DNA of 64,000 nt from assembly GCA_041484255.1 (NCBI GenBank), contig JBGPHE010000001.1, positions 6,240 to 70,239 of the forward strand, written 5' to 3'. The notes beneath the pieces are model-generated. The model was not told where the DNA came from. It ran no database searches and saw only the letters and a program-made list of their open reading frames with translations. Positions 23,146-64,000 of the stretch are shown here, one piece after another. This stretch comes from Candidatus Nanoarchaeia archaeon (GTDB lineage Archaea; Nanobdellota; Nanobdellia; Woesearchaeales; ARS49). The stretch's first letter is position 1. The number at the start of each line of letters is the position of its first letter. The position numbers and the translations under genes were made by a program.

Positions 23146-23198
23146 ATGCACGGCAGAATGGCGAAAGGTTTTTATAGGTTCGTGACAGGCAGAAGGTA

Positions 23199-23626: not shown

Positions 23627-23917
23627 GTGAAAAAAGAGGGTGTTGAGAGTAAAGAGTACGAGAAATTCATACCGAGAGTCATCTTCACCTACTCGACGGA
23701 GCATCTTCTCAAGAAAGACAAGGTCAGATTCTATTACGCGCTGAAGGGCCGCGACGGAAAAACCGGCATCGTCAAGCGCTGCGCCATCGAACAGCTCGGC
23801 CGCACCGTGCTTCTCGTCCCGACGAAACACGCGGCAGATGTCGATGAATTCCTGAAGTACTGGAAGTGCGAATTCCAGCAGCGCCGCGTGCTCGTCGAGC
23901 CGGGAGTGGGCAAATGA
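23627..23917 (+). CDS. Small basic protein (96 aa) heading the giant-gene operon; GTG start, no internal Met
   Basis: ORF with GTG start 49 bp after TATA 23571-23578. Its TGA overlaps the ATG of giant gene 1 (ATGA at 23914-23917). Confidence 0.4.
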   Translation: MKKEGVESKEYEKFIPRVIFTYSTEHLLKKDKVRFYYALKGRDGKTGIVKRCAIEQLGRTVLLVPTKHAADVDEFLKYWKCEFQQRRVLVEPGVGK

Positions 23918-36731: not shown

Positions 36732-36738
36732 TCAATTG

Positions 36739-51700: not shown

Positions 51701-53535
51701 ATGTCTCAATCACGAAGACGGACACGCCTGACCCCGTCAACACCAGCCAAAACCTGACGTATCAAATTAACGTGACGAGCACGGGCAACGGCACGGCGTT
51801 CAATGTGACCGTGAACGACACGTATCCGAATGAAGTCATCTTCCTGACTGCCCAGCCGTCGCCGAGCGTTGGCAACAACACGTTCACCCTGGGCAATTTG
51901 ACGCCGGGAACGGTCCGCAGCATCAACATCACCCTGCTGGTGCTCAACATCAGCAACAGCACGCTCATCAACAACACTGCGAATGTGACCTTCCAGAACG
52001 AATCCAGCGGATTGTTCAGCAGAATCGCGAACACCAGCACGACAGTGCAGAACATCACCATCATCCCGCTGTTCAACCTGAGCAATGTCAGCATTACGAA
52101 GACTGACTCACCAGACCCTGTGAACACGAGCCAGAACCTCACTTACCAGATCAACATCACGACCTCAGGCAATGGCACGTCGTTCAATATCACTGTCAAT
52201 GACACCTACCCCAACGAAGTCATTTTTGTGAGCGCACAGCCGTCGCCGACCGTCGGCAACAACACATTCCTGCTCGGCAACCTGACTGCGGGAATCACAC
52301 GCAGCATCAACATCACTGTGATGGTGCTGAATATCAGCAACAGCACCGTCATCAACAACACCGCAAATGTGACCTTCCAGAACGAGACGAGCGGATTGTT
52401 CAGCAGAATCGCGACCGCGAGCACGACGGTGCAGAACTTCAGCATCTTCCAGCTCTTCAACACAAGCAACATCAACATCACCAAGACCGACACACCCGAC
52501 CCGGTTGAGAACGGCACGCAACTGAACTACACCATTGTCGTCAATGTCACGGGCAATGGCACGTCGTTCAATACGACAGTGGTAGACACCTATCCTAATG
52601 AAATTGTCTTCACCAGCGCTCAGCCCACGCCGAGTTCAGGTAATAACACGTTCATCCTGGGCAATTTGACGCCAGGAACAGTCATCCGCATCAACATCAC
52701 GGTGAATGTGATGCAAGTAGTCAACGGAACAGTCATCAACAACACTGCGAATGTCACATTCCAGAACGAATCCAGCGGACTGTTCAGCAGGATTGCGAAC
52801 ACGAGCACAACCGTGCAGAACGTAAGCCCTGCGCCAGTGCAGAACATCCAGGTCGGAGGCGGCGGCTACCGCACGCCTACAATTGGCGGAGTGATCCCTG
52901 CGCAGCCAGTACCACCCGCAGTACCTCCTGCAGTTCAGTCGCCGCAGGCCTGCATTGAGAACTGGGTGTGCGAAGGCTGGGGACCGTGCACGGACGGCAA
53001 GCAGACGCGCCTGTGCGAAGACCAGAGCTCCTGCGGAACCGTAGCGCGCAAGCCTTCAACAGAGTTTGACTGCGGTGAAACGCCGCAGCCGGCTTCAGTT
53101 GCTGTAGAAACGCCAGCAGAAGTGCCTGCTTCCGAGCAGCCGATCTCGCTGCCGACAGTCGCAGGCACAAGTCAGGCAATAACGCAGCGTTTGCAGTCAG
53201 TCAGCGCGCTGCCGTGGACGTGGATACTCATCGGTTTCATTGTCCTAGGCGTGCTTGTCACGCTGGGCTTCTCCTATCCGCGCGGACGAAGCGACGAGCC
53301 GCCGCAAATGCCCAAGCCAGTGATGGAAGTGCGCGCTCCGCCGCGTCGGGAAGCGCCAAAAGCGCAGCCAAAGCCTGTTGAAAAGCCCTTGCCGAAGCTT
53401 CCCGTCATCGCGCCTGCCAAGATGGACCACGAACAGCTCCACGAGACTGACGTGCAGGCCAAGCAGCGCATGAAGGAGCTCGACGAGCGCCTGAAGAAGC
53501 TCGAACGCACGCTCAGCAGGCACAGAAAGCGCTGA
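36739..53535 (+). CDS. Giant surface protein 3 (5598 aa): signal anchor, He_PIG/cadherin-like Ig domain, beta-helix, DUF11, 5 Gly-rich 300-aa repeats, 4 LamG-like repeat units, 8 more DUF11 units, six-Cys stalk module, TM, coiled basic tail
   Basis: Single 16.8 kb open frame. First ATG at 36739, 7 nt after the gene 2 stop (the ORF-track start at 36736 is a TTG). Confidence 0.8.
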   Translation: MGDMGRNRRGVVSERTLIGIVLLAGLLGIGVMLWATGIVSFAQQHGVTGSAVASITGLAADDLETQPSFTATPAPNTAPIYRGPASFSTPQDTALTIDLSQYFSDAENDELTFIASSEDVIAVAIDGNALTLTPAAGFAGERSLTVIASDGVNLARTPVKIVVEGTQATPPAPQQEAPAPVEQPPATNESAANETPFNTQEEEFTNPVFNTQVTSISACTNISTPGEYALSTDLSRNITCIVIQTDNVSFSCAGHTITWDTQGLRNISGFTSFISAININKSGRTLFNVTVRDCRLIDGTVGGFNDHAIVLQDTNDSLIFNNTLVASGETSLGIEIVRTGNINISSNRINASSFGGAQAIANAIQFNLFSNNVSISDNDIRGFLSGSGIRTVGVMVDATSNPHDVEVVGNSITVNSTGGSATSTGMNGVTGFGTFLNATNNDVQAFGSGPSGVLANGAFFNRILARGSTAEGLRVGELADSNNITVNGSTTGALVGFNGNSTYSNNRLIATGSWIYTSLNGNTTFINTTFVNANGTLLFYNFYIDDVVIVQQSDLNTTINHAYVNSVDFPFLNTSAEIFLQGFNLTNNKPVVDYTDTNHFQGCPDTCTLLETGDNFIRFTVTHFTTYSSSDLVLLLEKSDSTDPVRIGSLFNYSVAVSVLNGNANNVTLTDLYPLEVVFNSSQPDPIDGTNDTFILGNLTENTTFIVNITVQSLTNDSGIVNVTNGTVINNTVNITFQNDTSDVFTLNDTEETTLVEATENFEPLSDCAVINTSSFLTTSVSGTGTCITIGNNSITLECAGNTITYATTGPGSAIFAEDKYNFTVRNCTLVLGDLNRLSLYDSPAINATNTTSGVNNRIDGSSFRLLNYFYQDGLPQQNCGDLSLNDSAFTGNATCTNITFVARARIRVNSTAVSNNSIAFITDNFLLGVRAFINANGTGYPGGADGNANGSGPGGGIDPVSINRGGGGAGHGGIGGQSNVPQGAGGRPYGSSLSPMTPGSGGATGDGGTHTGGNGGGAVSIFGQNVVLNGVISASAGNGSDGTNSGGGGSGGSILVVANTLFGNGSFTARGGFGGNDQSTGIQSGGSGSGGHIAVKFNTSTMNITSAHAPGAENVTALVNLGQPGTVGFLDMDDSILSITEGWRWSSEDAAVWNYTVINLTNAYTHTNESTVNITAVLIVLHNASISKENVTTGIDVNVSLTISAENFVMDPSEIDGAVINITAGNFTLGADSLINATGTGFEGGFNGNSNGSGPGGGIDPVNFNRGGGGAGHGGIGGQSNVVQGAGGRPYGSALNPFTFGSGGGTGESGNHPGGNGGGIVIISASHIILNGTINADGGNGSDGTNSGGGGSGGSINIITDALEGSGNLSARGGYGGWDQSTGIQAGGSGAGGHIIARFNASTFPVTNAHVEQTENVSGLGFFSQPGTLGFIDIDDDILTIVEGWRWTSEDTDVWNFTVINLSNAYTRTNESAVSVDALRFTLENSSITQENLTFGIHVNTTFSVNASVVLMNRSLIVNLTVVNITAADVTILEDAAINLTGTGFEGGFNGNSNGSGPGGGIDPVNFNRGGGGAGHGGIGGRSNVVQGAGGRPYGSSLNPLTLGSGGGTGENGNHPAGNGGGLAIISGTRVNISGTVSVDGGNGTDGTDSGGGGSGGSIFITADSFDGTGGLLSSGGFGGWDQSTGIQSGGSGAGGHIIAQFNTSTFPIANAHVTGTENVSALVFYSQPGTLGFIDIDDDTLTISEGWRWTSEDTDVWNFTVINVTDAFTRSNDSSVTISSGTLTFTNASFTQENLTVDYQLNLTLSAAADTIALNNSLITNLTQVNLSAGNLSVQDDAVIAVVGTGFAGGAISQNGSGPGGGVINDGFTRGTGAAHGGKGGQPAGGIITVARGPYGSTLNPDTLGSGGSGSAQTPGGSGGGVIFISAARASINGTLNADGANGTDGSSVNTGGGGSGGSIAIVAGIFEGTGTITARGGNAGTSFFADASSGGAGGGRIIVRFNTSTFPVAQASVAGGQNGSGSSSTGEPGTLGFLDIDNDILTVVEGWRWQSDDKSIWNFTIINITDALTRANDTTLNFSVGTLVMSNATLRADNASGNITLFINISAANVSLLDGAFILLNGSGFMGGAISQNGSGPGGGVINDGFTRGTGASHAGKGGQAAAGIISVVRGPYGSSLNPDTLGSGGSGSAQTPGGSGGGTIAISAARVSVNGSIIADGVNGTSGSSVNTGGGGSGGSINIITGIFEGNGTLSARGGDAGVSFFADASSGGAGGGRIIVRFNTSAYFLSRAAVTGGENGSGSSYRGQPGTLGFYDVDDNVLTLQEGWRWEQEDEPMSFGNVTTNHTLIFSNATVLVTDTFRANRINWSADENQTTVFNTSRLIIGNSSVNATGRLVFIYSSQFNDSNTLYLQGANFSLENQTVARVSWTEFSANVGNISARTRLQTRRAFVNATGMQGMNTTANITFFGVNFGTPKAQVDLADTGTFVNCVPFINPFCTTQSYADNVFTFNTSHFTTYTVVEGGVSLALTKTDTPDPVFAGNTLSYAILLNLTAQDAFNVTLTDIYPNQTIFVSAEPSPISGTNNTFIVGNLTENDTFIINITVMVRSDTSNGIDINNTANISFQNSTGAMFTANVTESTHVVTSNRPVIAQVILNTTDVTLNDTNQNLTLFIINATDADDNTVWNITDFRRNNISIAVVNYAFETNISTVSASVRDYSTYSANGTLGTAGQNPTWNLSGPLGGAYYFDGNDFITAPATAPTLPLTFEFWVKPATSSPVGIFDTAPGSGGVLRNFPGGVIEWHGGDPTLALDVVGGNWYHIVLIFSFDGARHITYYRNGTFIATANGSASSGFAWTTMRLGDINNGGAGTYTGEMSEFRVYNRSLTASEIEQLYIEGVAGRHPQIITRGNTVAGDVWQACATPNDNNLTGSSGDGTTVCSNNVTINSVQTVAPVIAQVILNSTDPSKNDTSQNLTLFVINATSASNAAVRNITDFRRNNVSIAVVNMPFETNVTSVATGLIRDYGTWGNNGTLGGGTAANAPLWNNSGKVGGDYVFDGSNDFISLTEPPAGSTNLANGSVFAWIRTANAGASYRGIVIKQDAYGMFLLDNVFIIHDWNAAADRTTGINVADGEWHLVGFTFQSGVAGGTKLSIDGQINLTTTLTINSQSEGIVIGAGDNPGTLQFFGGQIDEVMVFNGTLTPTQISQLYQDGIQNKSLDVITADELAAGDVWQGCATPNDNISDGNTTCSNNVTILAVQNGTNVAPTIAQVILNTTNPLLNDTNQNLTVFIINATDANGDAVQNITDFRTNNFSIALLNMPFETNVSSVSARAIRDYSTDEANGTLGNGAAGQAPVWDTQCKVGGCYQFDGTDDYIDVGNESLFDIEFNQPFTLSSWINTTNSANDDFIIAKEENSGNFRGYYYLIDNGAGGVINCLIESSAANLIQVRGSTVVRDGSWHNVVCAYNGSGTAAGVTLYVDGNLESMTTVSDNLAGNTILNNVDVTIGSRASAGVPLQGRVDEAYIFNHSLSAAQVKQLYLDGNASKHVMTIVQPETQAGDIWQACATPNDNLTDGNTTCSNNVTIFAQQNSTYSPPTIAQVILNTTNVSLNDTNQNLTVFIINATSAQNYSVQNITDFRRNATSIAVINLPFETNVTNATLGNGIRDYSSFNNSGTLGGGTQANAPVWNATGQIGGYYDFDGTNDFIQFNDSPSLSIAGSALTMEAWVQTPESAPALFDRIVVKEVNTNADPFIRYALYRTGGTNTVKFGVSTGGAGTIGQVTSNFSIPLNTWFHMVGTYDGANLRLYLNGELNNTVANTGAIATSTTPLVIGGNTEISDEFFNGFIDEVRVYNRTLTPDQIRQDYQAGVAHHQPLIIASNETIAGDIWSACATPNDNISDGNTTCSNNVTITAVQNNTVFNLSNVTLTKLDSPDPVNASSNLSYTIIINATADSPANITLTDTYPAQVIFLDSQPSPLAGTNNTFIVGNLTENNTFIVNITVLVLNVTNGTVINNTANISFHNQTGSQVAVTATQSTTVLAAPNATFNSSNISVVKTDFPDPVENGSQLSYTIAVASNGNGTAYNVTVNDTYPPQVVFDSAQPSPLAGTNNTFILGNLTAGTNILINITVNVSGSVPNNTLINNTVNVTFQNETSDVLSRISTASTQVIVIISTLTGCPVTINETTTLTQRLQSNSSCITFGTDNISLDCSGFSIGGNYSGNGISATNRLNISIRNCFIENFTTNIILQGTNRSTVASNIARNSSQQSMEIQTSAHDSIENNTAQSRTNVGINVTTGINVTLANNNGTSVSGVGISIDTGSVNNTLTNNNGTSTSGQGIFLSSAFNNTLRNNKATTAGAPSALQLSSSNGNLLVNNSGIHTGSGAGIAISVSDYNVLVNNTGIGNQGIALGDINSDWNNFTNNIGQGTSLGASVSASQNNTFVNNTFATNTGTSITLAGLAGTAALNNTFTNTTLLTNGTWFSTNGDGLNNSFTNTVFVSFNGTIRILPTVQLPNATTVDVRQLNVSFNRAHLNSSNLSFLNTTGQITLTGAVSNQPLVDFEDDNTFTLCDASICTVQSFAGGALIFNVTHFTTYSSTAGNSNLTLTKTDSPDPVNASSNLSYQISVNVTSDSPSNITLTDQYPAQVIFLTAQPSPITGTNDTFIIGNLTNGSSFSVNITVLVLNVTNGTVINNTANISFQNASGVTFFATVTENTTVRAQVIQFNLTNVTLTKTDSPDPVNASGILNYTVTVNATADSPANITLTDQYPAQVIFLSAQPSPLAGTNNTFIVGNLTAGQAFIVNISVLVLNVTNGTIINNTANITFTNQTGSVLTLNATQSTTVLAAGNATFNNSNISVTKIDAPDPVNTSAQLNYTINVTSNGNGTSYNVTANDTYPAQVIFLSAQPTPLAGTNNTFILGNLTAGQSVLINVTVLVLNISNGTLINNTVNVTFQNETSAVLSRIASTSTLVINLTFTPLFNASNVSITKTDTPDPVNTSQNLTYQINVTSTGNGTAFNVTVNDTYPNEVIFLTAQPSPSVGNNTFTLGNLTPGTVRSINITLLVLNISNSTLINNTANVTFQNESSGLFSRIANTSTTVQNITIIPLFNLSNVSITKTDSPDPVNTSQNLTYQINITTSGNGTSFNITVNDTYPNEVIFVSAQPSPTVGNNTFLLGNLTAGITRSINITVMVLNISNSTVINNTANVTFQNETSGLFSRIATASTTVQNFSIFQLFNTSNINITKTDTPDPVENGTQLNYTIVVNVTGNGTSFNTTVVDTYPNEIVFTSAQPTPSSGNNTFILGNLTPGTVIRINITVNVMQVVNGTVINNTANVTFQNESSGLFSRIANTSTTVQNVSPAPVQNIQVGGGGYRTPTIGGVIPAQPVPPAVPPAVQSPQACIENWVCEGWGPCTDGKQTRLCEDQSSCGTVARKPSTEFDCGETPQPASVAVETPAEVPASEQPISLPTVAGTSQAITQRLQSVSALPWTWILIGFIVLGVLVTLGFSYPRGRSDEPPQMPKPVMEVRAPPRREAPKAQPKPVEKPLPKLPVIAPAKMDHEQLHETDVQAKQRMKELDERLKKLERTLSRHRKR
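36967..37235 (+). other. He_PIG/cadherin-like Ig domain at the N-terminus of giant protein 3
   Basis: PIYRGPASFSTPQDTALTIDLSQYFSDAENDELTF...LTLTPAAGFAGERSLTVIASDG; paralogous to 54166-54435 in gene 4. Confidence 0.55.
39540..43700 (+). repeat. Five tandem Gly-rich repeats of about 300 aa in gene 3 (periods 906, 909, 906, 837 nt)
   Basis: The anchor NGSGPGGG recurs at 39586, 40492, 41401, 42307, 43144. Each unit is a Gly-rich half (GGGGAGHGGIGGQSNV...GGGGSGGSI...) plus an FNTSTFP...WRWTSEDTDVWNFTVINL half. Confidence 0.75.
44690..48490 (+). repeat. Four LamG-like (Laminin_G_3 / concanavalin-A-like jellyroll) repeat units of about 300 aa in gene 3
   Basis: Unit starts (IAQVILNTT...) at about 44691, 45603, 46546, 47533. 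Core ...YYFDGNDFI....FEFWVKP.......G.WYH......G....YRNG......G.......FRVYNRSLTA.EI.QLY. Confidence 0.65.
50545..52850 (+). repeat. Array of 6 consecutive DUF11-type units in gene 3 (8 after 48.5 kb counting two at about 48510-49260)
   Basis: Same unit consensus as gene 2. Unit starts at about 50560, 50935, 51310, 51700, 52090, 52475. Confidence 0.65.
52951..53073 (+). other. Six-Cys membrane-proximal module, copy in gene 3 (CIENWVCEGWGPCTDGKQTRLCEDQSSCGTVARKPSTEFDC)
   Basis: Same Cys/Trp spacing; followed by a Pro-rich stalk, a TM helix (about 53207-53272) and a coiled basic tail. Confidence 0.7.
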
Positions 53536-53570
53536 TTCTGCCCGTATTCCCCCTATTATATAGTGCGGGC

Positions 53571-53728
53571 ATTCATGAACAATCGTTCATATGAATAGCC
53601 AGATGGAAAAATTCTTAAACTAAACTCCACCTACGACGCGCGGGGTGAGTAAATTGAAGGGGATAGACCACTGTCTACGCTTTACTTCTTTTTGCTCCAC
53701 GATACGTTCATATGAATTTTCATATGAA
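53571..53728. promoter_or_regulatory. Cluster of palindromic motifs in the AT-rich region upstream of the AbrB-like gene and giant gene 4
   Basis: CGTTCATATGAA at 53584-53595 and 53705-53716, TTCATATGAA at 53719-53728, TTCATGAA at 53573-53580. TATA-like TATTATATA at 53555-53563 and TTTATCAAAA at 53759-53768. Confidence 0.45.
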
Positions 53729-53785
53729 AAATCATATTGATTATGTAGGAAATCAGTCGTTTATCAAAAAAGGGGAGAATTAGGG

Positions 53786-53965
53786 GTGGGTTTAACCAGA
53801 AAGCTTCAGCGGACGAAGAAAGATCAGTATACGCTGACGATTCCAAAAGCATTAGTGGAACTGCTCAACCTCAAGGAGCAGGACGAGATCGAGTTTAACC
53901 TTGTTGACGGCAATATCACGCTGAAGAAGTCGGCGCGCAAGCGGGGTGAGAAGGATGCGAAGTAA
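53786..53965 (+). CDS. AbrB/MazE (SpoVT-AbrB, swapped-hairpin) family small DNA-binding protein (59 aa), GTG start
   Basis: Translation VGLTRKLQRTKKDQYTLTIPKALVELLNLKEQDEIEFNLVDGNITLKK... matches the AbrB-type pattern (..tiPk.l.e.l.l..gd.v....dg..i.L.k). GGGGAG lies 8 nt upstream. Under 60 aa, so absent from the ORF track. Overlaps the giant gene 4 start by 11 nt. Confidence 0.5.
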   Translation: MGLTRKLQRTKKDQYTLTIPKALVELLNLKEQDEIEFNLVDGNITLKKSARKRGEKDAK

Positions 53966-56900
53966 GCGCGCAGCCCTCTCGGACAGGCTTCTTATCGGGC
54001 TTGTCCTCCTTGCAGGCGTTTTCGGCATCGCAGTGATGCTCTGGGGCACGGGAATCATTACCGCTCCGCAGTTCGGCAGCGGCGCAGTCACGGGAAGCGT
54101 CGTTGCAACGCCTGCAGCGTCGCCTATCACTGGAATGGACGCAGCAGCAGTCGTCAATGAAGCGCCAATCTATACAGGACCTGCAAGCTTCAGCACGCCG
54201 CAAGATACGGCGCTCACCATTGATTTGTCGCAGTACTTCTCTGACCCCGAGCACGATGAGCTTTCGTTCAGCGCGGCAGAGGAAGACCAGATTGCGGCCG
54301 CGGTTGACGGCAGCCTGCTCACGCTCACGCCCGCAGCAGGCTTCGCAGGCGAACGCACGCTCACTATTGTTGCGTCTGACGGCGTCAATGTCCTGCGCGC
54401 GCCGGTCAAGATTGTCGTGGAAGGCACGGCAGCGCCTGAACAGCCGCCCGCGCCTGCACCGAGCGCGCCGCAGCCAGAACCGCAGCCGCCTGCGCCAGTG
54501 ACGCAAAACGCGACACAGCCGCCTGAAATCACCACAAGCGACTTCACCAATCCAGGATTCACCTCGCAGGACGTCATCACGTCCTGCCCGGCGACGATGA
54601 ACACCAGCACGGTGCTGACGCAGAGCATTACGTCGACGACCACGTGCATCACGTTCGGCGCGGACAACATCGCGCTGGACTGCGCGGGATTCAATATCAC
54701 GTTCGGCACCGGCGGCGGCTCGGCAAACGGCATTGTCGCGCGCAATCGCACCAATGTCACAATCACCGGCTGCACCATCCGCGACACGAACGCGGCAGGA
54801 ACGTTCGGCATCGGCATCAACTTCACGAACGTCAACAACAGCCTTATCGTCAACACCAGCGTATTCACCAACGGCACCAACGACGACTACGGCATCTACT
54901 TTGTCTCGAACGACAGCAACAACACCGTCACCAATGTGAGCGTCTTCGCGCGCGGCACCTCCATCAACAACATCGGCATCTACTTCATCACCAACGCGAA
55001 CAACAATACCGTCGACAACAGCACCATCAGCGGGTTAAGCACGGCGAACGTCAACAACCACGGCGTCAGGATTGAGGCTGCCTCGTCCAACAACCTTTTC
55101 ACGAACAACACGGTCAGGACAAACGGAAGCAGCAGCGACTTCGGCTTCTACCTCTTCAACAACGTCACGCTGAACACTATCGCGAACAACAATATCACCG
55201 CGGACGGCACGAGCGGCACGAATATCGGCATCCGCCTGGAGGGCTCGGGCAACGGCGGCGTCAACAGCAATTTCATCGCGAACAACACGATCCAGACCTT
55301 CCCGCCCGGCGCGAGCAACAACTACGGCATCTACCTCTTCACGTCGGTCTCGAACAACATTGTCACGAACAATACCGTCCGGACGAACGGCACGTCGACG
55401 AATGTCGGCATCCGGCTCGAGAGCACGGCCAGCAACAACACGGTCGCGAACAACAACATCACGGTGCGCGGCACGGGCTCCAACAATAATGGCGTCCTCC
55501 TGACCACCACTGCGAACAACAACACCGTCGCCAACAACACGATTGACATGAGGGCGGGAACCACCACGAACGACGGCATCCTGCTGCAGACCACTGCCAA
55601 CAACAACACCATCAGCAATAACAGCATCATGATTGCGCAGATGTCGTCAACCGACAACCGCGGAATCGTATTGTTTAGCACCGCGTTCAACAACATCCTC
55701 GTCAACAACACCATCAACACGACGGGAACAATCAATAATTACGGCATCGTCCTGAGCACGAACGTCGGCAACACGACCATCGCGAACAACAGCATCCAGA
55801 CGAACGGCAGCAGCATCAATTACGGCATCTGGCTGACGGCGGTTTCAGACAATACCACCATCGCAAACAACCTCATCACGACCGCGGGAGCCGACAGCTA
55901 CGGCATCCGCCTGGACAACAGCCGCGGAAACAACATCACAGGCAACAACATCACCAGCGCGCAGTATGACGGCTTGTTCATCGAAGGAACCGACATCACG
56001 CACTTCACGAACAACACGATCACCAGCTCAAACACCATCAACGGCTCGCCCATCTTCTACTATGGCGGCGCGTACGACTCGCCGGCCTGCCCGAACAACC
56101 AGCTGCTGCCGGTTAACGGAACGGCATCGCACATTGACTTCCTGGGCTGCAACAACGTGACGCTGACCAATTACACTAGTATCGAGGTGCTCACGCTGGT
56201 GAACACCAGCAACATGACCATCACCCAAATCCAGCAGCGCAGCAGCAAGTACGGCATCCGCGTGTTCTTCACGACCGGCCCGAACAACATTTCATTCAGC
56301 AACATCACTGCGTCGAACACGACGGTCTCGGACAATTACGGAGTGTACCTGCTGGTCGCGGGCAACACGACCATCGCAAACAACAACGTCACGACCATAA
56401 GCGCTCTGGCGAACAACCACGGCATCTACCTGCTCACGAACGCGACCAACAATACGGTTGCGAACAACATCGTGAACACGACCGGCACGAGCAACAACAA
56501 CGGCATCCGCGTCGAAGGCAATGGCAACAACAACACCATCGTAAACAATACAGTCAGCACCAAGGGCTCGAGCACGAACAACTACGGCATCGTCCTGTTC
56601 AATACCGCGTCCGGCAACCTGGTGCTGAACAACACGGTCAGGGCGAACGGAAGCAGCAGCGATTACGGCATCTATGTCATCACTGCTGCGAGCAACAACA
56701 CGGTCGCGAACAACAGCATCACCACGGACGGCACGAGCGGCACGAACATCGGCATCCGCATTGAGGGCGCGAACAACGTTCCGGTCGTCAACAACCTCGT
56801 GGCGAACAACCTGATCCAGACCTTCCCACCGGGCGCGAACAGCAACTACGGAATCCAGCTGGTTACGGTCGTATCGAACAATATCATCACGAACAACACC

Positions 56901-59900
56901 ATCCGCACGAACGGCACATCCATAACCCAAGGCATCCGGCTGGAAAGCGTCGTCGGCAACAACACGGTCGCGAACAATAATATCACGGTGAGGGCTTCGG
57001 GAACGCTCAACCACGGCATCTATATGCTCTCCACGGCGAACAACAACACCATCGCCAACAACACGATCGACATCAGGGGCGGCACGACCACCAACAACGG
57101 CATCCGCGTGGAGGCAATCGCCAACAACAACACGCTCAACAACAATACCATCACCATCGCGATGATGTCCGGCAGCGACAACTACGGCATCTATTTGTTT
57201 AACGCCGCGTTCAACAACATCGTCATCAACAATACGGTGAATACCAGCGGAACCACCAGCAACATCGGCATCTTCCTCTTCACCAATGTCGGCAACGCGA
57301 TCATCGCGAACAACAGCATCCAGACCAATGGCAGCAGCATCAATTACGGCATCTATATGGTCACGCAGGCGGACAACACCACCATCGACAACAACATCAT
57401 CACGACTGCGGGCGCCGACAGCTACGGCATCAGGATGGACAACAGCCGCGGCAACAACATCACGCGCAACAATATCACCGGCGCGCAGTATGACGGCTTG
57501 TTCATCGAAGGAACCGACATCACGCACTTCACGAACAACACGATCACCAGCTCAAACACCATCAACGGCTCGCCCATCTTCTATTACGGCGGCGCATACG
57601 ACTCGCCCGCGTGCCCGAACAACCAGCAATTGCTCGTCAACAACACCGCGTCGCACATCGACTTCCTGCGATGCAACAACGTCACGCTGACAAACTACAC
57701 CAGCATGGAGGTCTTGTCGCTCATCAACACGAGCAACATGACGATTACCCAAATCCAGCAGCGCAGCAGCAAGTACGGCATCCGCGTGTTCTTCACGACC
57801 GGCCCGAACACTATCAGCAACAGCAACATCACCGCGTCGAACACGACGGTCACGGACAACTACGGCATCTTCGTGTCGGTCGCAGGCAACACGACCATCA
57901 TCGGCAACAACGTCACCACGATGAGCGCACTGGCGAACAACCACGGCATCTACCTCGTCACCAATGTCACCAACAACACGGTCGCGAACAACATCGTGAA
58001 CACGACCGGCACGAGCAACAACAACGGCATCCGCGTGGAAGGCAATGGCAACAACAACACGATTGTGAATAACTCAGTCAACACGAAGGGCTCGGGCGCG
58101 AGCAACTACGGCATCGTCCTGTTCAACACCGCGTCCGGCAACATGGTGCTGAACAACACCGTCAGGGTGAACGGAAGCAGCAGCAACTTCGCAGTCTATG
58201 TCATCACCCAAGCGAGCAACAACACCATCGCCAACAACAACATCACCGCCGACGGCCCGAGCGGCAGCAACATAGGCATCCGCCTCGAGGGCGCGGGTGG
58301 CAACGTGCCGCCGATCACGAACAACCTCATCGCGAACAACACGATTGCGGTGCTTCCGCAGAGTGCCAGCACCAACTTCGGCATCTATCTTATTACGGTT
58401 GTCTCGAATAATGTTATCACCAACAACACTATCCGCATAAACGGCACGAGCAACGACAGGGGCGTTCAGCTGGATAACACCGTCAGCAACAACACCATCG
58501 CAAACAACAATATCACCATGCGCACGACCGGCAGCGGCAACATCGCAGTCTATATCGTCACCGCCTCGCACAACAACACCGTCGCGAACAACAGCATCAC
58601 GATGTCGGGCTACGCGAACAGCAATCAGGGCATCCGCCTCGAGAGCACAGTCACCAACACCACCATCGCGAACAACACCATCTTCATGAACCAGTCGACG
58701 TCGAGCGACAACTACGGCATCCACTTCTTCAACACCGTCTTCAACAACAGCGTCACCGGCAACACCATCTTTGTCAACGCGACGACGAACGTGTACGGCA
58801 TCCTGCTCCAAAACACTGTCGGCAGCAGCTTCTTCGACAACAACAACCTCGCCACGCAAGGCACGACGCCCGGCTACGGCGTCTTCCTCTTAACCACGTC
58901 CACGGGGTCGTTCTTCAACCGCACAGTCCTGAACAACCCGACAGACTGGCTTGACGCAGACTCCACGTCGGCAGGAAACTTCACCAACACGACATTCCAG
59001 CAGCCGAACGGCAGCATCGCCATCCCCGGCAGGTTCCAATTCAACAACTCGGTGCTCCTGAAGAACAAGCTCAACATCAGCGCGAACAAGGCGTTCCTCA
59101 ACAGCACTGCCTTCGCCATCCTGAACCAGACGGGCATCATCACGCTGAACGGCGTGAACTCCAGCCAGCCGCGGCCCACCGCGGACTTCGATACCGGAAC
59201 GTTCGTCGACTGCCCCGCGACGCAGTGCACCGTCCTGAACTTCGCCAATAACGTCCTCACGTACAACACGACCGGCTTCACGACCTATTCCTGGGCGGAG
59301 AACGGGCTCAATATCTCGTTCACGAAGACCGACAATCCCGACCCCGTGAGCCCGGGCACGACGCTGAATTACACCATCACGTTCATGGTCAACACGGGCA
59401 ACGCGAGCAATGTCACGGTGACCGACCAGTATCCTGCACAAGTTATCTTCCTCAGCGCGCAGCCGTCGCCGCTCGCGGGAACGAACGACACGTTCATCGT
59501 CGGCAACCTCACGAACGGGACGAGCTTCAGCGTCAACATCAGCACGCAGGTGCTCGGCAATGCCGCGGGCCTGCGCCTCAACAACACCGCGAATGCCTCA
59601 TTCCAGAACGAGACCGGCGCGGCGCGCACGGTGAACGTGACCGAGGCCACCACCGTCCTCTCCATACCGACCATTGCGCAGGTCATCCTGAACACCACCA
59701 ACCCGCTCACGAACGACACCAACCAGAACCTGACCCTGTTCATCATCAACTCCTCCGATCCGGATAATGACATCACCAGGAACATCACCGACTGGCGCAG
59801 GAACGGCACGAGCATCGCGGTGACGAACTTCCCGTTCGAGACCAACACGAGCAGCACCGCCTCGAGCGCCATCCGCGACTACAGCACGTACCGGGCGAAC

Positions 59901-62900
59901 GCCACGCTGGGCTCGGGCGCGCAGACGCCGACCTGGAACCTCTCCGGACCGCTGGGCGGCGCGTACAGCTTTGACGGCAATGACTTCCTGACCTCTCCGA
60001 CTCCCACGCCCACCCTGCCGCTGACGTTCGAGTTCTGGGTGAAGCCCGCCACGAGCACGCCGGTCGGCATCTTCGACACCGCGCCGAACGTGGCTGCCGT
60101 GCTCCGCAACTTCCCCGGCGGCTCGGTCGAATGGCACAGCGGCGACCCGTCGGTCAGCCTCGGCCTGACCGCAGGCGCGTGGCAGCACTTGGTCCTGATT
60201 TTCAGCTTCGACACCAACCGCCACATCACGTACTACCGCAACGGCGTGCTGAACCTGACCGCGAACGGCAGCGCGAGCAGCGGCTTTGCGTGGAGCAACC
60301 CCATCCGCTTCGGCGACATCAACAACGGCGGCGCGGGAACGTACACCGGCGAAATAAGCGAGATCCGCATCTACAACCGCTCGCTCACGGCGTCGGAAGT
60401 GCAGAAACTCTACGTGGAAGGCAATGCGAGCATCTACCCGCTCACGATAACGGGCGGCAACACCATCGCCGGCGACAACTGGAGCGCGTGCGCGACGCCG
60501 AACGACAACAACCTCACCGGCTCATTCGGCGATGGCACGACCGTGTGCAGCGGCACCGTGACCATCAATGCCGTGCAGAACGCGAGCTACAGCTCGCCGG
60601 TCATCGCGCAGGTCATCCTGAACACGACCACTGTCGCGCTGAACGACACCAACCAGAACCTGACGCTGTTCATCATCAATGAGACCAGCGCGACCAACCT
60701 CGCGGTGCAGAACATCACGGACTGGCGGCTGTTCAACAGCAGCGTTTATACAAACAATGGCAGCATCGCATTCCTGAACCTGCCCTTTGAGACCAACCAG
60801 AGCGGCAACGTGACCGCAGGAGCCATCCGCGACTACAGCACGTTCGGCAGCAACGCGACGCTGGGCGACGGAAGCGCAGCCGCGGCCCCTGTCTGGAACA
60901 ACACCGACCGCATTGGCGGCGCGTACCGCTTTGACGGCAGCAACGACTTCATCACCGTTCCGGACAGCCCGCTCTGGGCATACGGCACGAGGAACTTCAC
61001 CATTGACCTGTGGGTGAACTTCAACGCGGTCAACGGCGGCGGCTTCTCGAGCATCCCGAACGTGTTTATCGCGCAGGATGACGGCGGCGGAGCCACCAAC
61101 AAGTGGATTTTCTCGCTCGGCGGCGGCGTGCTCAACCTACACATCAACAACCCAGGCCAAGGCGTGAGCGTCTTCCTCGCGCAGGCGCCGTTCTCGCCCG
61201 TGCTCAACCAATGGTACCACATCGCAATCCGCAGGGACGCGACGAATTTCACCACGTTCATCAACGGCACGGCTGCCGCGTCGGAAGTGAACACCGTCGC
61301 AGTACCTGACGCGAGCGCCAAGGTCACCATCGGCGAGTCCGAGGGCACCGGCTTCATCAACGCCGAGCTGGACGAAGTCCACATCTGGAACCGCTCGCTC
61401 ACCGACGCCCAGATCGCGGACATTTTCCGCGAGGGCAATGCCACGAACAAGCACCGCATCCAGACATTCATCAGCAACGAGACGCGCGCCGGCGACATAT
61501 GGCAGTCCTGCGTGACGCCGAATGACAACATCACGGACGGCAACACGACGTGCAGCAACAACGTGACCGTCAACGCAGTACAGAACGCGAGCAATGTCGC
61601 CCCTGCTATCGCGCAGGTCATCCTGAACACGACAAATGTCACGCTGAACGACACCAATCAGAACCTGACCTTATTCATCATCAACGAGACTGCGGGAAGC
61701 AACCCTGCAATTACGAACATCACTGCATGGAGCGTCAACAATAGGTCGTACTTCCTGCTGAACACGCCGTTCGAGGCGACTATCAGCAACAGCACGTTCA
61801 TCAAGGACTACGCGCTGGGCAACAACGGAACGAACTACAGCGGCACGACGCCCACGCTCAACGCAACCACTGGCCCGGACGGCTTTGGCGCGGTCAACTT
61901 CAGCGGCACGACCAACCAGTTCTACAACTTCGGAAGCAATGACGCGTTCCGCCCGCCCGCCAAGATTTCGCTCGAGGCGTGGGTAAATGTCACCACGTTT
62001 GTCGAATTCGCAGGCATCGTGAGCACGGTCTTTGACAGCGGCGCGGTCGAGAGCGGCTACGGCCTGCTGACGCACAGCGGCGGTTCCATTTACTTTGTGC
62101 TCGCTCCCGAAGGCTCAGGCATCGTCTACCTCACCGCACCTGCATCGTCGCTGACCGCGAACCGATGGGCGCACGTGGTCGGCACGTATGACGGCCTCAC
62201 GATGCGTCTCTATGTGGACGGCGTGCAGGTTGCGACCCAGGCGACGAACACGAAGATCGACTACAATCCGCTCAACAACCTGACCATCGGCGCGTACAAG
62301 GACGACGACGAGTTCTACGGATTCAATGGCGTCATCGCGCAGGTGCGCGTCTGGAACGCCACGCTGAACGATTCGCAGGTCGCGCTGCTTAACAACACGC
62401 GGCTGGATAACGCGCGTGTCGACACGCTGGTGGGTGCACAGCTCCTGCAGGGACAGGTCTGGCAGTCGTGCGTCACGCCCAATGACCGCAGCGCGGACGG
62501 CAACGCGACGTGCAGCAACAACCTGACCGTCGCGACGCACACGCTGAACTACACGCAAGTCATCCTCAACACGACCAATGTCGCGACGAACGACACCAAT
62601 CAGAACCTGACGCTCTTCGTCATCAACGCGAGCGATTCCAGCGCGAGCCCCATCCAGAACATCTCGGACTTCCGCCGCAATGGCACGAGCATCGCGTTCG
62701 TGAACCTGCCGTTCGAGACCAACACCAACCTGACGCAGGGCGGCAATATCCGCGACTACAGCTCGTTCAACAACCCCATCTCGCTGGGCAATAGCTCAGT
62801 CTTCGCGACGCCGTTCTGGAACAGCACCGCGAAAGTCGGCGGCGGCTACCGGTTTGACGGAGCGAACGATTTCCTCGAGACAGACAACCTCGACATCGGC

Positions 62901-64000
62901 AACAACTTCACGGTCGAACTGTGGATCTTGCCGCAGAGTGCGGGCGCGTTCCAGCACCTCGTGTCCAATGCGTTCGGCGCATCAAATTACGGCGCGCTCT
63001 ATTTCAATGCAGACCACTTAGATTACTACCAAGGCAGCTCCTCACGAGTGACCACTGCAGGAGGAACCATCGGCCAGAACGCCTGGACGCACGTCGCGCT
63101 TGTGTACAACGGAAGCATAGCAACTCTTTATCTGAACGGAACAACAGCCGGAACGAGCGCGGCGTTCACCACGACGTTCAACAACTCCGTGCGCATCGGC
63201 CAGGCAATCCCCTTCGAGTCCGCATACTTCACCGGCTTCATGGACGAGGTGAAGATCTACAACCGCGCATTGAGCGTCGAGCAGATCCGTCAGGACTTCG
63301 TGCTCGGCAACGCGAGCCTGCGCTCGACCGTCATCGCGCGCAATGAGACCATCGCAGGGGACATCTGGACTGCGTGCGCGACGCCGAACGACAACTTTAC
63401 CGATGGCGGCACGTTCTGCAGCAATAACGTGACCATCAATCCAGTGCAGAACGTGACCGTGAACAATAGCGCCCCATCCATCGCGCAGGTCATCCTGAAC
63501 ACGACGAACGTCTCAAGCAATGACACCAACCAGAACCTGACTGTCTTCATCATCAACGCGACCGATGTGGACAATGACGTCGTGCAGAATATCACGGACT
63601 TCCGCAGGAACAACCTCAGCATCGCCATCATCAACTTCCCGTTCGAGACCAACACGAGCAACATAACCAATGCGTCGCTCCGCGACTACAGCACGTTCAA
63701 CAACAACGGCACGCTCGGCGGAGGAGCTGCGGCGTTCGTGCCGCGCTGGAACAACTCCGGCAGGCCGGGCGGCGCGTACGTCTTCGACGGCGTGGACGAT
63801 TATATCAACGTCTCCGACAGCACGTCGCTGGACAGCCTGCAGAACTTCACGCTTGAGTTCTGGCTGAGCCCGTCGCCGACCCAAGCTGCGTCCGCAAACA
63901 TCCTCAGAAAAGAAAGCAGCCCGTTCACGAACGGCTTCGGCATCGAGATGGACGGAACGCCGAACAGCAATACGTACATCGCGGGCTGGAAGGACGGCTC
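53955..64000 (+). CDS. Giant surface protein 4 (more than 3348 aa, 3' end outside window): signal anchor, He_PIG-like domain, about 1400 aa of PbH1 beta-helix coils including a 508-aa tandem duplication, junction module, DUF11, at least 5 LamG-like units
   Basis: Open frame from the ATG at 53955 to the window end with no stop. Absent from the ORF track, presumably because it lacks a stop. N-terminus paralogous to gene 3. Confidence 0.75.
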   Translation, partial: MRSKRAALSDRLLIGLVLLAGVFGIAVMLWGTGIITAPQFGSGAVTGSVVATPAASPITGMDAAAVVNEAPIYTGPASFSTPQDTALTIDLSQYFSDPEHDELSFSAAEEDQIAAAVDGSLLTLTPAAGFAGERTLTIVASDGVNVLRAPVKIVVEGTAAPEQPPAPAPSAPQPEPQPPAPVTQNATQPPEITTSDFTNPGFTSQDVITSCPATMNTSTVLTQSITSTTTCITFGADNIALDCAGFNITFGTGGGSANGIVARNRTNVTITGCTIRDTNAAGTFGIGINFTNVNNSLIVNTSVFTNGTNDDYGIYFVSNDSNNTVTNVSVFARGTSINNIGIYFITNANNNTVDNSTISGLSTANVNNHGVRIEAASSNNLFTNNTVRTNGSSSDFGFYLFNNVTLNTIANNNITADGTSGTNIGIRLEGSGNGGVNSNFIANNTIQTFPPGASNNYGIYLFTSVSNNIVTNNTVRTNGTSTNVGIRLESTASNNTVANNNITVRGTGSNNNGVLLTTTANNNTVANNTIDMRAGTTTNDGILLQTTANNNTISNNSIMIAQMSSTDNRGIVLFSTAFNNILVNNTINTTGTINNYGIVLSTNVGNTTIANNSIQTNGSSINYGIWLTAVSDNTTIANNLITTAGADSYGIRLDNSRGNNITGNNITSAQYDGLFIEGTDITHFTNNTITSSNTINGSPIFYYGGAYDSPACPNNQLLPVNGTASHIDFLGCNNVTLTNYTSIEVLTLVNTSNMTITQIQQRSSKYGIRVFFTTGPNNISFSNITASNTTVSDNYGVYLLVAGNTTIANNNVTTISALANNHGIYLLTNATNNTVANNIVNTTGTSNNNGIRVEGNGNNNTIVNNTVSTKGSSTNNYGIVLFNTASGNLVLNNTVRANGSSSDYGIYVITAASNNTVANNSITTDGTSGTNIGIRIEGANNVPVVNNLVANNLIQTFPPGANSNYGIQLVTVVSNNIITNNTIRTNGTSITQGIRLESVVGNNTVANNNITVRASGTLNHGIYMLSTANNNTIANNTIDIRGGTTTNNGIRVEAIANNNTLNNNTITIAMMSGSDNYGIYLFNAAFNNIVINNTVNTSGTTSNIGIFLFTNVGNAIIANNSIQTNGSSINYGIYMVTQADNTTIDNNIITTAGADSYGIRMDNSRGNNITRNNITGAQYDGLFIEGTDITHFTNNTITSSNTINGSPIFYYGGAYDSPACPNNQQLLVNNTASHIDFLRCNNVTLTNYTSMEVLSLINTSNMTITQIQQRSSKYGIRVFFTTGPNTISNSNITASNTTVTDNYGIFVSVAGNTTIIGNNVTTMSALANNHGIYLVTNVTNNTVANNIVNTTGTSNNNGIRVEGNGNNNTIVNNSVNTKGSGASNYGIVLFNTASGNMVLNNTVRVNGSSSNFAVYVITQASNNTIANNNITADGPSGSNIGIRLEGAGGNVPPITNNLIANNTIAVLPQSASTNFGIYLITVVSNNVITNNTIRINGTSNDRGVQLDNTVSNNTIANNNITMRTTGSGNIAVYIVTASHNNTVANNSITMSGYANSNQGIRLESTVTNTTIANNTIFMNQSTSSDNYGIHFFNTVFNNSVTGNTIFVNATTNVYGILLQNTVGSSFFDNNNLATQGTTPGYGVFLLTTSTGSFFNRTVLNNPTDWLDADSTSAGNFTNTTFQQPNGSIAIPGRFQFNNSVLLKNKLNISANKAFLNSTAFAILNQTGIITLNGVNSSQPRPTADFDTGTFVDCPATQCTVLNFANNVLTYNTTGFTTYSWAENGLNISFTKTDNPDPVSPGTTLNYTITFMVNTGNASNVTVTDQYPAQVIFLSAQPSPLAGTNDTFIVGNLTNGTSFSVNISTQVLGNAAGLRLNNTANASFQNETGAARTVNVTEATTVLSIPTIAQVILNTTNPLTNDTNQNLTLFIINSSDPDNDITRNITDWRRNGTSIAVTNFPFETNTSSTASSAIRDYSTYRANATLGSGAQTPTWNLSGPLGGAYSFDGNDFLTSPTPTPTLPLTFEFWVKPATSTPVGIFDTAPNVAAVLRNFPGGSVEWHSGDPSVSLGLTAGAWQHLVLIFSFDTNRHITYYRNGVLNLTANGSASSGFAWSNPIRFGDINNGGAGTYTGEISEIRIYNRSLTASEVQKLYVEGNASIYPLTITGGNTIAGDNWSACATPNDNNLTGSFGDGTTVCSGTVTINAVQNASYSSPVIAQVILNTTTVALNDTNQNLTLFIINETSATNLAVQNITDWRLFNSSVYTNNGSIAFLNLPFETNQSGNVTAGAIRDYSTFGSNATLGDGSAAAAPVWNNTDRIGGAYRFDGSNDFITVPDSPLWAYGTRNFTIDLWVNFNAVNGGGFSSIPNVFIAQDDGGGATNKWIFSLGGGVLNLHINNPGQGVSVFLAQAPFSPVLNQWYHIAIRRDATNFTTFINGTAAASEVNTVAVPDASAKVTIGESEGTGFINAELDEVHIWNRSLTDAQIADIFREGNATNKHRIQTFISNETRAGDIWQSCVTPNDNITDGNTTCSNNVTVNAVQNASNVAPAIAQVILNTTNVTLNDTNQNLTLFIINETAGSNPAITNITAWSVNNRSYFLLNTPFEATISNSTFIKDYALGNNGTNYSGTTPTLNATTGPDGFGAVNFSGTTNQFYNFGSNDAFRPPAKISLEAWVNVTTFVEFAGIVSTVFDSGAVESGYGLLTHSGGSIYFVLAPEGSGIVYLTAPASSLTANRWAHVVGTYDGLTMRLYVDGVQVATQATNTKIDYNPLNNLTIGAYKDDDEFYGFNGVIAQVRVWNATLNDSQVALLNNTRLDNARVDTLVGAQLLQGQVWQSCVTPNDRSADGNATCSNNLTVATHTLNYTQVILNTTNVATNDTNQNLTLFVINASDSSASPIQNISDFRRNGTSIAFVNLPFETNTNLTQGGNIRDYSSFNNPISLGNSSVFATPFWNSTAKVGGGYRFDGANDFLETDNLDIGNNFTVELWILPQSAGAFQHLVSNAFGASNYGALYFNADHLDYYQGSSSRVTTAGGTIGQNAWTHVALVYNGSIATLYLNGTTAGTSAAFTTTFNNSVRIGQAIPFESAYFTGFMDEVKIYNRALSVEQIRQDFVLGNASLRSTVIARNETIAGDIWTACATPNDNFTDGGTFCSNNVTINPVQNVTVNNSAPSIAQVILNTTNVSSNDTNQNLTVFIINATDVDNDVVQNITDFRRNNLSIAIINFPFETNTSNITNASLRDYSTFNNNGTLGGGAAAFVPRWNNSGRPGGAYVFDGVDDYINVSDSTSLDSLQNFTLEFWLSPSPTQAASANILRKESSPFTNGFGIEMDGTPNSNTYIAGWKDG
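54166..54435 (+). other. He_PIG/cadherin-like Ig domain at the N-terminus of giant protein 4
   Basis: PIYTGPASFSTPQDTALTIDLSQYFSDPEHDELSF...LTLTPAAGFAGERTLTIVASDG. Confidence 0.55.
55115..58830 (+). repeat. Tandem duplication of a 1524-nt (508-aa) PbH1 beta-helix unit in gene 4: two full copies (55115-56638, 56639-58162) and a diverged third (58163 to about 58830)
   Basis: Near-identical stretch GCGCAGTATGACGGCTTGTTCATCGAAGGAACCGACATCACGCACTTCACGAACAACACG... at 55959 and 57483 (period 1524 nt, in frame), about 95% nt identity over about 680 nt by eye. Unit starts RTNGSSSDFG / RANGSSSDYG / RVNGSSSNFA. Confidence 0.8.
59672..64000 (+). repeat. At least five LamG-like repeat units in gene 4, continuing past the window end
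   Basis: Unit starts at about 59683, 60601, 61607, 62563, 63480, with the same VILNTT...NDTNQNLT.FIIN leader and W..C.TPNDN..DG.T.CSNNVT linker. Confidence 0.65.

Follow-up and report, generated by a model that had tools for sequence, protein, structure and literature searches.

Gene 4 of the window, the 64,000-nt stretch of DNA analysed here, carries an in-frame tandem duplication of a 1524-nt block within its β-helix stalk. The first unit (55080..56603, + strand) and the second unit (56604..58127, + strand) encode 508 aa each. They align without gaps and share 80.8% of their nucleotides and 77.0% of their amino acids. The duplication is real and moderately old. Our preferred explanation, with a probability of about 0.8 for the whole of it, is that a 508-aa stalk block was duplicated in tandem and then diverged under selection with short gene conversion, and that the product is a surface protein with heavy N-glycosylation and a C-terminal membrane anchor, made by a Woesearchaeota-like DPANN archaeon.

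Gene 4 and its repeat

Gene 4 (53955..64000, + strand) is cut off by the window end, and its open frame is uninterrupted from 53925 to that end. The full product is P0222 (6387 aa), which is identical to the window product over 3348 aa except for N1762S. From the N-terminus, gene 4 encodes a signal/transmembrane segment, a cadherin-like domain, a Pro-rich linker, the β-helix stalk, a DUF11-like domain and a LamG array. The cadherin-like or bacterial Ig domain lies at the distal end (54153..54404, + strand; Pfam Big_9 3.3e-10, Cadherin_5 3.5e-10). The stalk of ~1460 aa, also near the distal N-terminus, starts with a Cys-rich N-terminal cap and the first coils (54585..55079, + strand; Cys at aa 211, 231, 243 and 273). 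It is closed by a C-terminal cap (NFTNTTF...NGSI...) and a small Cys-containing β domain (58905..59330, + strand), which were assigned from the sequence and its homologues. The C-cap motif is at aa 1675, and this element is common to most homologues. The array of LamG (Laminin_G_3) modules (59650..64000, + strand) gives 5 Pfam stretches with a period of ~930–1005 nt (repeat families D14, D17–D20) and extends past the window. Beyond the window end, P0222 adds more LamG, two β-helix domains, four DUF11, a C-terminal transmembrane segment and a cytoplasmic tail. It contains 411 N-X-S/T sequons and an N-terminal hydrophobic segment. A C-terminal hydrophobic stretch near aa 6000, read by eye, is the candidate transmembrane segment, and a basic K/P-rich tail follows it. 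The window also contains the archaeal housekeeping genes for thermosome, archaeal GluRS and FtsZ, and the best among the named GluRS matches is Woesearchaeota / Nanoarchaeia. The tRNA and Rfam searches of the entire window gave 0 matches.

The offset of 1524 nt (3 × 508, thus in frame) is the top self-match of 54000-60500, with 49% identity versus 38–41% at all other offsets. The ungapped repeat pairs 55080-56759 with 56604-58283 (1680 nt, 2.1 copies) in an unbroken open frame, which bears out the original prediction of an in-frame tandem duplication of a β-helix block in a giant gene. The 69-nt string quoted with that prediction does occur exactly twice, at 55959 and 57483 (0 expected by chance), and the longest exact runs common to both units are 103 nt (55957-56059), 64 nt and 53 nt. 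As proposed, RTNGSSSDFG, RANGSSSDYG and RVNGSSSNFA are spaced by 1524 nt, but their codons start at 55116, 56640 and 58164, and the boundaries first given (55115 and so on) are 1 nt out of frame. The identity of about 95% proposed for the second half was too high: it is 87.4% there (55877-56638) and 75.2% in the first half, and 94% is found only at 55890-56069. The N-terminal cap region is outside the high-identity repeat, with offset-1524 identity at background (27–43%).

The second unit is followed by a partial, older third copy of 259 aa (58128..58904, end approximate, + strand), which has coils only, without the junction. It shares 52.9% and 53.7% of its amino acids with the first half of unit 1 and of unit 2, respectively, against 77% between the full units, so it is indeed the more diverged copy. 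A 6-nt insertion after ~58284 changes its offsets to 1530 and 3054, and weak identity goes on to ~58904. Three ORFs inside the repeat (56292-57527 and 58074-58859 on the − strand, 57611-58072 on the + strand) gave no family matches and were set aside as shadow ORFs of the N/T-rich coding frame.

Unit 1, unit 2 and the partial third copy follow one another in the same order in three assemblies: the window, an NCBI contig (L016) that differs from it by 20 SNPs and no gaps, and a separate JGI contig of 26 kb encoding P0222, with 1 aa difference. Their concordance makes it very improbable that the duplicate was created or mis-counted during assembly and that the true gene has one unit or another number. 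Between the units, 19% of bases and 23% of residues are different, and a divergence of 19% is beyond what an assembler can invent; an assembler-made duplicate, the scenario set against the original prediction, is therefore excluded. Short-k assemblies do break at the repeat, which is a point in favour of an artefact, as is the end of the NCBI contig within the gene 4 LamG array. Three Logan contigs (L018–L020, k=31, 100% identical to the window) all end at 55986, which lies 30 nt inside the exact tract of 103 nt; the repeat thus breaks such assemblies up and does not collapse in them. The expected assembly trouble thus takes the form of breakage, and no collapse was seen. The proposed hotspot for length variation between strains is not supported by the equal copy number in the three assemblies, a comparison made at assembly level. 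Scans of genome contigs and metagenome contigs for strain-level copy-number variants found no close relative of the locus, and the P0222 protein cluster has a single member. Additional near-identical copies of the unit are formally possible, with the copy number being read from assemblies.

Coils, fold and junction

Each unit consists of ~14 regular coils of 27–29 aa and a conserved irregular Cys-containing junction of 117 aa. The coil length is given by the spacing of the GI-x-L anchor (27–29 aa, or 81–87 nt) and by the autocorrelation maximum at 27–28 aa; the ~22 aa suggested previously came from a 22-letter motif that spans part of one coil. In Pfam, gene 4 scored 110.5 bits for Beta_helix (cut-off 25.9), 67 bits for NosD (cut-off 23.6) and 272 bits for Laminin_G_3. 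Unit 1 alone was above the cut-offs for Beta_helix (71.8 bits) and NosD (63.1 bits), and TIGR03804 para_beta_helix gave 22.2 bits versus a cut-off of 19.45.

The AF2 model of aa 540-960 (pLDDT 90.2, pTM 0.90) is all-β with ~46 short strands. The model predicts one continuous β-helix that runs on through the junction, where a loop of 12 residues sits at the YYGG..CPNN motif. Foldseek matched the model to AlgG/AlgE epimerases with a probability of 1.0 and to tailspikes, NosD and PL6 lyases with 0.97–1.0. The TM-scores to solved β-helices were 0.3–0.36, which makes this a fold-level match only, and the identity to the enzymes was 10–14%. A catalytic (lyase/epimerase-like) role of the stalk instead of a spacer role is conceivable.

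Junction element 1 (55956..56264, + strand, aa 668-770) reads DGLFIEG...[FY]YYGG-x3-SPACPNN...C, and its two Cys are separated by 20 residues, as are Cys in the N-cap. Junction element 2 (57480..57788, + strand) is 92% identical to element 1 in amino acids. The junction is kept in relatives with the pattern DGLF-x-G ... [FY][FY]GG-x3-SP-x-CPN ... C over ~100 aa. A search with its profile gave 181 matches in 1.84 billion representative proteins; those strong matches that were examined are β-helix proteins several thousand residues long, from DPANN-like archaea. The junction had no Pfam match, and the PDB sequence search with its profile gave no meaningful match. As a so far undescribed element, it might act as a functional site (for instance a ligand-binding loop stapled by a disulfide, or a hinge), which the duplication would then have doubled, or it might be a natural module boundary where stalks are extended, trimmed or lost; we regard this as speculative. 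The junction was also considered as a relic N-terminal cap, with the unit as a former whole β-helix domain, and this was rejected because the cap-only alignment was no better than shuffles (z=0.45).

Divergence, possible gene conversion and order of events

Between the two units the overall dS is 0.52 (0.43–0.64), dN is 0.15 and dN/dS is 0.29. Such a dS does not agree with a recent expansion, as the repeat had been described. Because the units diverged under purifying selection (dN/dS ~0.3), both copies are functional parts of the protein. The silent divergence is patchy, with dS of 0.59, 0.17, 1.06 and 0.36 by segment. Two adjacent 180-nt segments have disjoint intervals: 0.17 (0.05–0.37) at 55890-56069 versus 1.06 (0.58–2.17) at 56070-56249. 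In addition, silent changes are missing from a stretch of 35 successive codons for identical amino acids (P=0.005; runs test z=-3.0). The 103-nt exact tract (55957..56059 and its identical copy at 57481..57583, both + strand), where the k=31 assemblies break, is a candidate gene-conversion tract. It suggests short intragenic gene conversion, in a single run that nucleotide-level selection could mimic.

That the units are more alike in their second half is due mostly to lower dN, a sign of protein-level constraint on the junction and not of recent homogenisation. dN is 0.08 in the second half and 0.23 in the first half, and at synonymous sites the two halves do not differ significantly (P=0.13). 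Purifying selection on the junction alone, in the absence of any gene conversion, is nevertheless an unlikely account. It agrees with these dN values and with the junction being the best conserved part between species (50% versus 43% overall), but the silent sites are clustered too, as the 35-codon run and the disjoint dS intervals of adjacent segments show. The units can therefore be called still homogenised for a short tract, to which the patchy dS and the 35-codon run point, but not for the second half at large, whose identity comes mostly from its lower dN. Four SNPs between the window and the NCBI contig in the repeat (56516, 56543, 56552 and 57788) were checked as possible inter-copy conversions and dismissed, as the paralogous base was matched at 1/4.

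A protein search with the stalk gave nothing above 39% identity, and the full-length P0222 emerged only when the representatives were searched exhaustively with the profile of the junction. One or two blocks are present in related proteins, and a close relative with 80% nucleotide identity is without the entire β-helix cassette. In the unit tree the two window units were grouped with 100% bootstrap. The deep nodes had a bootstrap of only 35–49%, so that the order of events could be either one duplication specific to this lineage or an ancestral duplication with homogenisation; both would fit.

It is possible, though we think it the lesser chance, that the two-junction architecture is ancestral and common to L001/P0224, and that the 77% identity is the outcome of concerted evolution by repeated conversion or replacement duplication. 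Both L001p and P0224 align collinearly with gene 4, and each likewise contains two junctions, 496–497 aa apart. For all units, the third included, identity is higher within the gene than between species at the corresponding position, and the dS is patchy, reaching 1.06 in one segment. However, the units of the L001/P0224 clade cluster strictly by position (100%/100%), so that clade has undergone no homogenisation, and the window's units had no positional affinity in sliding windows. Two single-junction proteins, P0223 and P0004, are joined to the window pair with weak support (35–73%), and the GC difference of 57.5% versus 44.7% can inflate within-genome similarity. The middle unit was also considered as a hybrid of one unequal crossover between two older modules; the sliding windows gave no mosaic affinity to the positional units of L001/P0224 and did not support this origin.

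For the preferred tandem duplication, unequal homologous recombination or replication slippage between in-register coil repeats would have duplicated the block, and recombination or slippage between in-register coils keeps the reading frame automatically. Both copies would then have diverged (dS ~0.5) under purifying selection (dN/dS ~0.3), and later at least one tract of ~100 nt would have been re-homogenised by intragenic gene conversion.

Proposed effect on the stalk and comparison with known surface proteins

The extra unit would add ~18 rungs, equal to ~9 nm of a rigid glycan-covered rod, and a second junction loop. The 9-nm figure was calculated from general β-helix geometry (508 aa / ~27.5 aa per rung × 4.8 Å). 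The longer stalk may serve as a spacer that sets the N-terminal cadherin-like domain at a greater distance from the membrane and the LamG lectin array.

The stalk resembles the right-handed parallel β-helix family (PF13229 Beta_helix, PF05048 NosD) in its HMM matches above threshold and in its predicted three-stranded rungs. β-helix proteins usually have rungs of 22–25 aa, and gene 4 with rungs of 27–29 aa is a long-rung variant. Its stalk is several times longer than β-helix enzymes. Unlike the family, it is interrupted twice by the conserved Cys-containing junction that lacks a Pfam or PDB sequence match.

Homogenised tandem-repeat adhesins, such as staphylococcal SasG/Aap, Bap, Candida Als and the RII region of Marinomonas MpIBP, have a strain-variable repeat number. 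Like them, gene 4 has gained length in a surface stalk by duplicating a structural module in frame, and it has traces of intragenic conversion. These adhesins contain many copies above 95% identity (criterion 90–95% nt), whereas gene 4 has only two full copies at 80.8%. Their copy number varies between strains, whereas that of gene 4 is equal in the three assemblies compared. Internal tandem duplication is a textbook route of growth for repeat and stalk proteins. The gene 4 duplication is an ordinary case of this growth mode and matters little alone. Its value is as a clean and dated example of module-by-module length change in giant surface proteins, the presumed host-contact machinery, taken from an uncultured DPANN archaeon. 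Among relatives the number of blocks is one or two, and the one close relative is devoid of the whole cassette. Such repeats fragment short-k metagenome assemblies, which explains why genes of this type are so commonly cut short in MAGs and absent from protein databases.

"Pectin lyase-like" glycosylated surface proteins have been described in the DPANN archaeon Nanobdella aerobiophila (bioRxiv 10.1101/2023.10.27.564410). Gene 4 is like these pectin lyase-like/β-helix proteins in N-X-S/T-rich composition, signal peptide, C-terminal transmembrane segment and DPANN host. Giant surface proteins of DPANN archaea include the nanohaloarchaeal SVXNc_0300/BNXNv_0298, the "SPEARE" proteins and LamG-domain surface proteins (PMC10266531). 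SPEARE proteins have a C-terminal VirB4/TraG-like ATPase domain (PMC10266531). In contrast, Pfam searches of both halves of the gene 4 product found Beta_helix, NosD, Laminin_G and DUF11 only, with no VirB4/TraG-like ATPase and no protease domain. Gene 4 is dominated by β-helix, LamG and DUF11, whereas Ig/fibronectin arrays are found in the DPANN giant surface proteins. The likeness lies in a membrane-anchored ectodomain protein of >6000 aa, a small-genome DPANN host, LamG lectin-like modules and a giant-surface-gene cluster. A role in host or substrate contact is presumed for these proteins and, by analogy, likewise presumed for gene 4. Gene 4 itself is placed within a cluster of giant surface genes.

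The tandem repeat and its irregular element

The stalk of gene 4 contains the in-frame tandem duplication that had been proposed, with a 508-codon spacing inside one open frame. The frame is open from 53925 to the window end, and its start ATG at 53955 is the same as in public records. When all offsets were scanned in 54000–60500, the strongest self-match was found at 1524 nt (49% identity), while the 81-nt coil period gave 41% over a background of about 38%. The ungapped repeat covers 55080–56759 versus 56604–58283, and is followed by a 6-nt insertion and weak similarity up to about 58904. Unit 1 (55080–56603, + strand) and unit 2 (56604–58127, + strand) align to each other without gaps and share 80.8% DNA and 77.0% protein identity; a partial third copy shows about 53% protein identity. 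The longest three exact runs common to both units are 103, 64 and 53 nt.

The original prediction is real but overstated. Its 69-nt string is present in exactly two copies, at 55959 and 57483 (0 expected by chance), and RTNGSSSDFG, RANGSSSDYG and RVNGSSSNFA are spaced exactly 1524 nt (508 codons) apart as claimed, but had been placed one base early; the in-frame starts are 55116, 56640 and 58164. An identity of about 95% had been given for the second half of the unit, but identity is 75.2% in the first half and 87.4% in the second, and 94% is reached only in 55890–56069. The coil period is 27–29 aa instead of about 22 aa.

In each 508-aa unit, about 14 regular coils are combined with an irregular stretch of 117 aa that has the motif DGLFIEG...[FY]YYGG-x3-SPACPNN...C, in which two cysteines are 20 residues apart. 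This Cys-containing element (the junction) locates at 55956–56264 and 57480–57788 (+ strand), and is also present in the database proteins P0003, P0004, P0028, P0223 and P0224 and in the DNA locus L001. In an AlphaFold2 model of aa 540–960 (pLDDT 90.2, pTM 0.90), the predicted all-beta solenoid is unbroken across the junction, and a loop of 12 residues is seen at the YYGG..CPNN motif. Foldseek matched the model to AlgG, AlgE, phage tailspikes, NosD and PL6 lyases with probabilities of 0.97–1.0 and TM-scores of just 0.3–0.36, which therefore define the fold class but nothing beyond it. The junction has no relative in a PDB sequence search and is not covered by a dedicated Pfam family; its Pfam matches are marginal beta-helix/NosD matches, all under the curated cut-offs. 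A junction profile searched against 1.84 billion representatives gave 6 matches below 1e-30, 27 below 1e-10 and 181 below 1e-3. The motif [FY][FY]GG-x3-SP-x-CPN...C is shared at 35–56% identity by a few very long archaeal beta-helix proteins. One unit contains about 18 rungs at about 27.5 aa per rung. The rise of a beta-helix is 4.8 Å per rung, and from the rung count and this general value we infer that one unit lengthens the rod by about 9 nm.

Age and origin of the two units

Between unit 1 and unit 2, the Nei-Gojobori dS is 0.52 (0.43–0.64), dN is 0.15 and dN/dS is 0.29. Therefore, contrary to what had been supposed, the duplication is not recent, and purifying selection acts on both copies. 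Along the unit, dS is 0.59 in 55080–55889, 0.17 (0.05–0.37) in 55890–56069, 1.06 (0.58–2.17) in 56070–56249 and 0.36 in 56250–56759. Silent differences are found in 23.5% of the 429 same-amino-acid codons and are not evenly mixed (runs test, z = −3.0), and the longest run without silent change has 35 codons (55950–56057; permutation P = 0.005). This pattern fits one short conversion tract laid on an older duplication. The 35-codon run would be a trace of the proposed homogenisation. Lower dN (0.08 versus 0.23 in the first half) accounts for most of the overall excess identity of the second half, and at silent sites the two halves do not differ significantly (P = 0.13). Duplications of this kind, inside a repeat stalk, are already known.

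The window encodes a thermosome, an archaeal GluRS and FtsZ, and among named proteins the best GluRS matches are from Woesearchaeota/Nanoarchaeia. L001 is a Woesearchaeota MAG whose GluRS is 72% identical and whose GC content is 44.7%, versus 57.5% for the window; P0117 is on the same 71,001-nt contig. Its gene-4 homologue shows 43% identity across 1544 aa, and the 8 kb upstream have little similarity to gene 3. In this orthologue, 497 aa separate the two junctions, and identity between its units is only 45%. P0224, closely related to the L001 protein, has the matching arrangement. P0223 has a single junction, in the first helix, and P0004 (= L010) and P0028 have one each. In a neighbour-joining tree, the units of L001 and P0224 group by position (100%/100%), whereas the two units of the window group together (100%); the deeper nodes are poorly supported (35–49%). 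Therefore, the duplication in the window is lineage-specific in its present form. An independent duplication has roughly even odds of being the origin of the pair, and an ancestral pair that was homogenised is rather unlikely; both fall within the main explanation.

Copy number and assembly

A copy diverged by 19% is beyond what an assembler can make. Window base 1 corresponds to base 23198 of the NCBI contig JBGPZU010000001.1 (GCA_041493925.1), which stops 370 nt past the window end, within the LamG array of gene 4. A 20,180-nt alignment of the window with the stored NCBI contig (L016) has no gaps and 20 SNPs, and in its first 12 kb the window shows no difference from the NCBI record. The substitutions lie in 44049–59239 and are clustered (4 in 45936–45971, 6 in 54582–54794 and 3 in 56516–56552), which suggests either microdiversity among strains that is focused on the giant genes or another version of the assembly. 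P0222, the full-length gene 4 product from another contig, has the same units as the window and L016; three assemblies therefore agree. Among these three no copy-number variant was found, and scans of genome and metagenome collections turned up no other sequence closely related to the locus. The original interpretation is therefore partly right (the duplication and the traces of homogenisation) and partly wrong (recency, length polymorphism between strains and assembly collapse), since copy number is equal and no collapse is seen in the three assemblies. Three Logan contigs from different runs (L018–L020) match the window at 100% identity, and each stops at 55986, which is 30 nt inside the 103-nt exact tract. 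This is as expected from a k=31 graph, the k that Logan assemblies use, and the repeat troubles short-k assembly.

In a related species (L017, ENA ERZ27248239 k141_2523609, and L021, SRR10861649), the gene 3 end and gene 4 start are 80% identical in nucleotides. Its gene-4 orthologue keeps the first 156 aa (84% identity) with LamG modules directly after, and the beta-helix and DUF11 block (about 5 kb, gene 4 aa ~160–1880) is wholly absent (L017 10170–13901 versus window 54430–59600). Thus, the length of this gene family varies between species by whole blocks and cassettes.

The surface-protein island and the full-length protein

Four consecutive giant + strand genes at 23866–64000 make up a surface-protein island that is at least 40 kb long and reaches the window end. 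They encode a phosphodiesterase/sulfatase with beta-helix (1120 aa), an S8 peptidase with DUF11 (3168 aa), gene 3 (36736–53535, 5599 aa; LamG and DUF11) and, fourth, gene 4, with a cadherin-like domain at its N-terminus and Pfam matches to Beta_helix, NosD and five Laminin_G_3 modules. Asn/Thr codons rich in AAC/ACC give the coding strand a strong skew (GC skew as low as −0.21, AT skew as high as +0.33); Asn and Thr make up 36% of residues in the repeat units. Giant and LamG surface proteins are known in nanohaloarchaea and are thought to mediate host contact (PMC10266531).

P0222, recovered by the junction profile search, is a 6387-aa JGI/IMG protein encoded on a separate 26,011-nt contig, with one difference (N1762S) across all 3348 residues of gene 4 in the window. 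Its part beyond the window adds four LamG modules and two beta-helix domains to those already described, together with four DUF11 domains, and its C-terminal region has a Cys-rich motif, a hydrophobic stretch near aa 6000 (a candidate TM, by eye) and a tail of about 370 aa that is rich in K and P. From this stretch and tail the protein appears, as read from sequence, C-terminally anchored, which would place the duplicated stalk distally, right behind the cadherin-like domain. N-glycosylation sequons (N-X-S/T) are very dense and number 215 in the 3348 in-window residues (6.4 per 100 aa), 411 in P0222 and 35–38 per repeat unit. When the stalk was the query, a word-indexed protein search did not recover the 100%-identical P0222, which was found by exhaustive search alone; giant low-complexity proteins can be invisible to fast protein search.

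Other repeats are present in the island. The LamG array (59650–64000 and on; P0222 aa 1900–4450) has modules of about 310–335 aa with nearly identical linker motifs, and a 39-nt linker stretch at 59711, 60641 and 61646 is 92–97% identical and encodes NDTNQNLTLFIIN. Near the 3' end of gene 3, a 384-nt tandem repeat (51367–52821, 3.8 copies, 75% identity) is probably an array of DUF11-type domains. Immediately 5' of gene 4, a 59-aa MazE/AbrB-like ORF (SpoVT-AbrB fold; 53786–53965, + strand; Pfam MazE_antitoxin, 5.9e-8) overlaps the gene 4 ATG by 11 nt, and its protein is 100% identical in L017/L021, where the flanking DNA is just 80% identical. The palindrome TTCATATGAA occurs in three copies (53586, 53707 and 53719) within 250 nt upstream and is absent from the rest of the 64 kb. 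The ORF and the palindromes may be a dedicated regulator and the operators of the giant gene.
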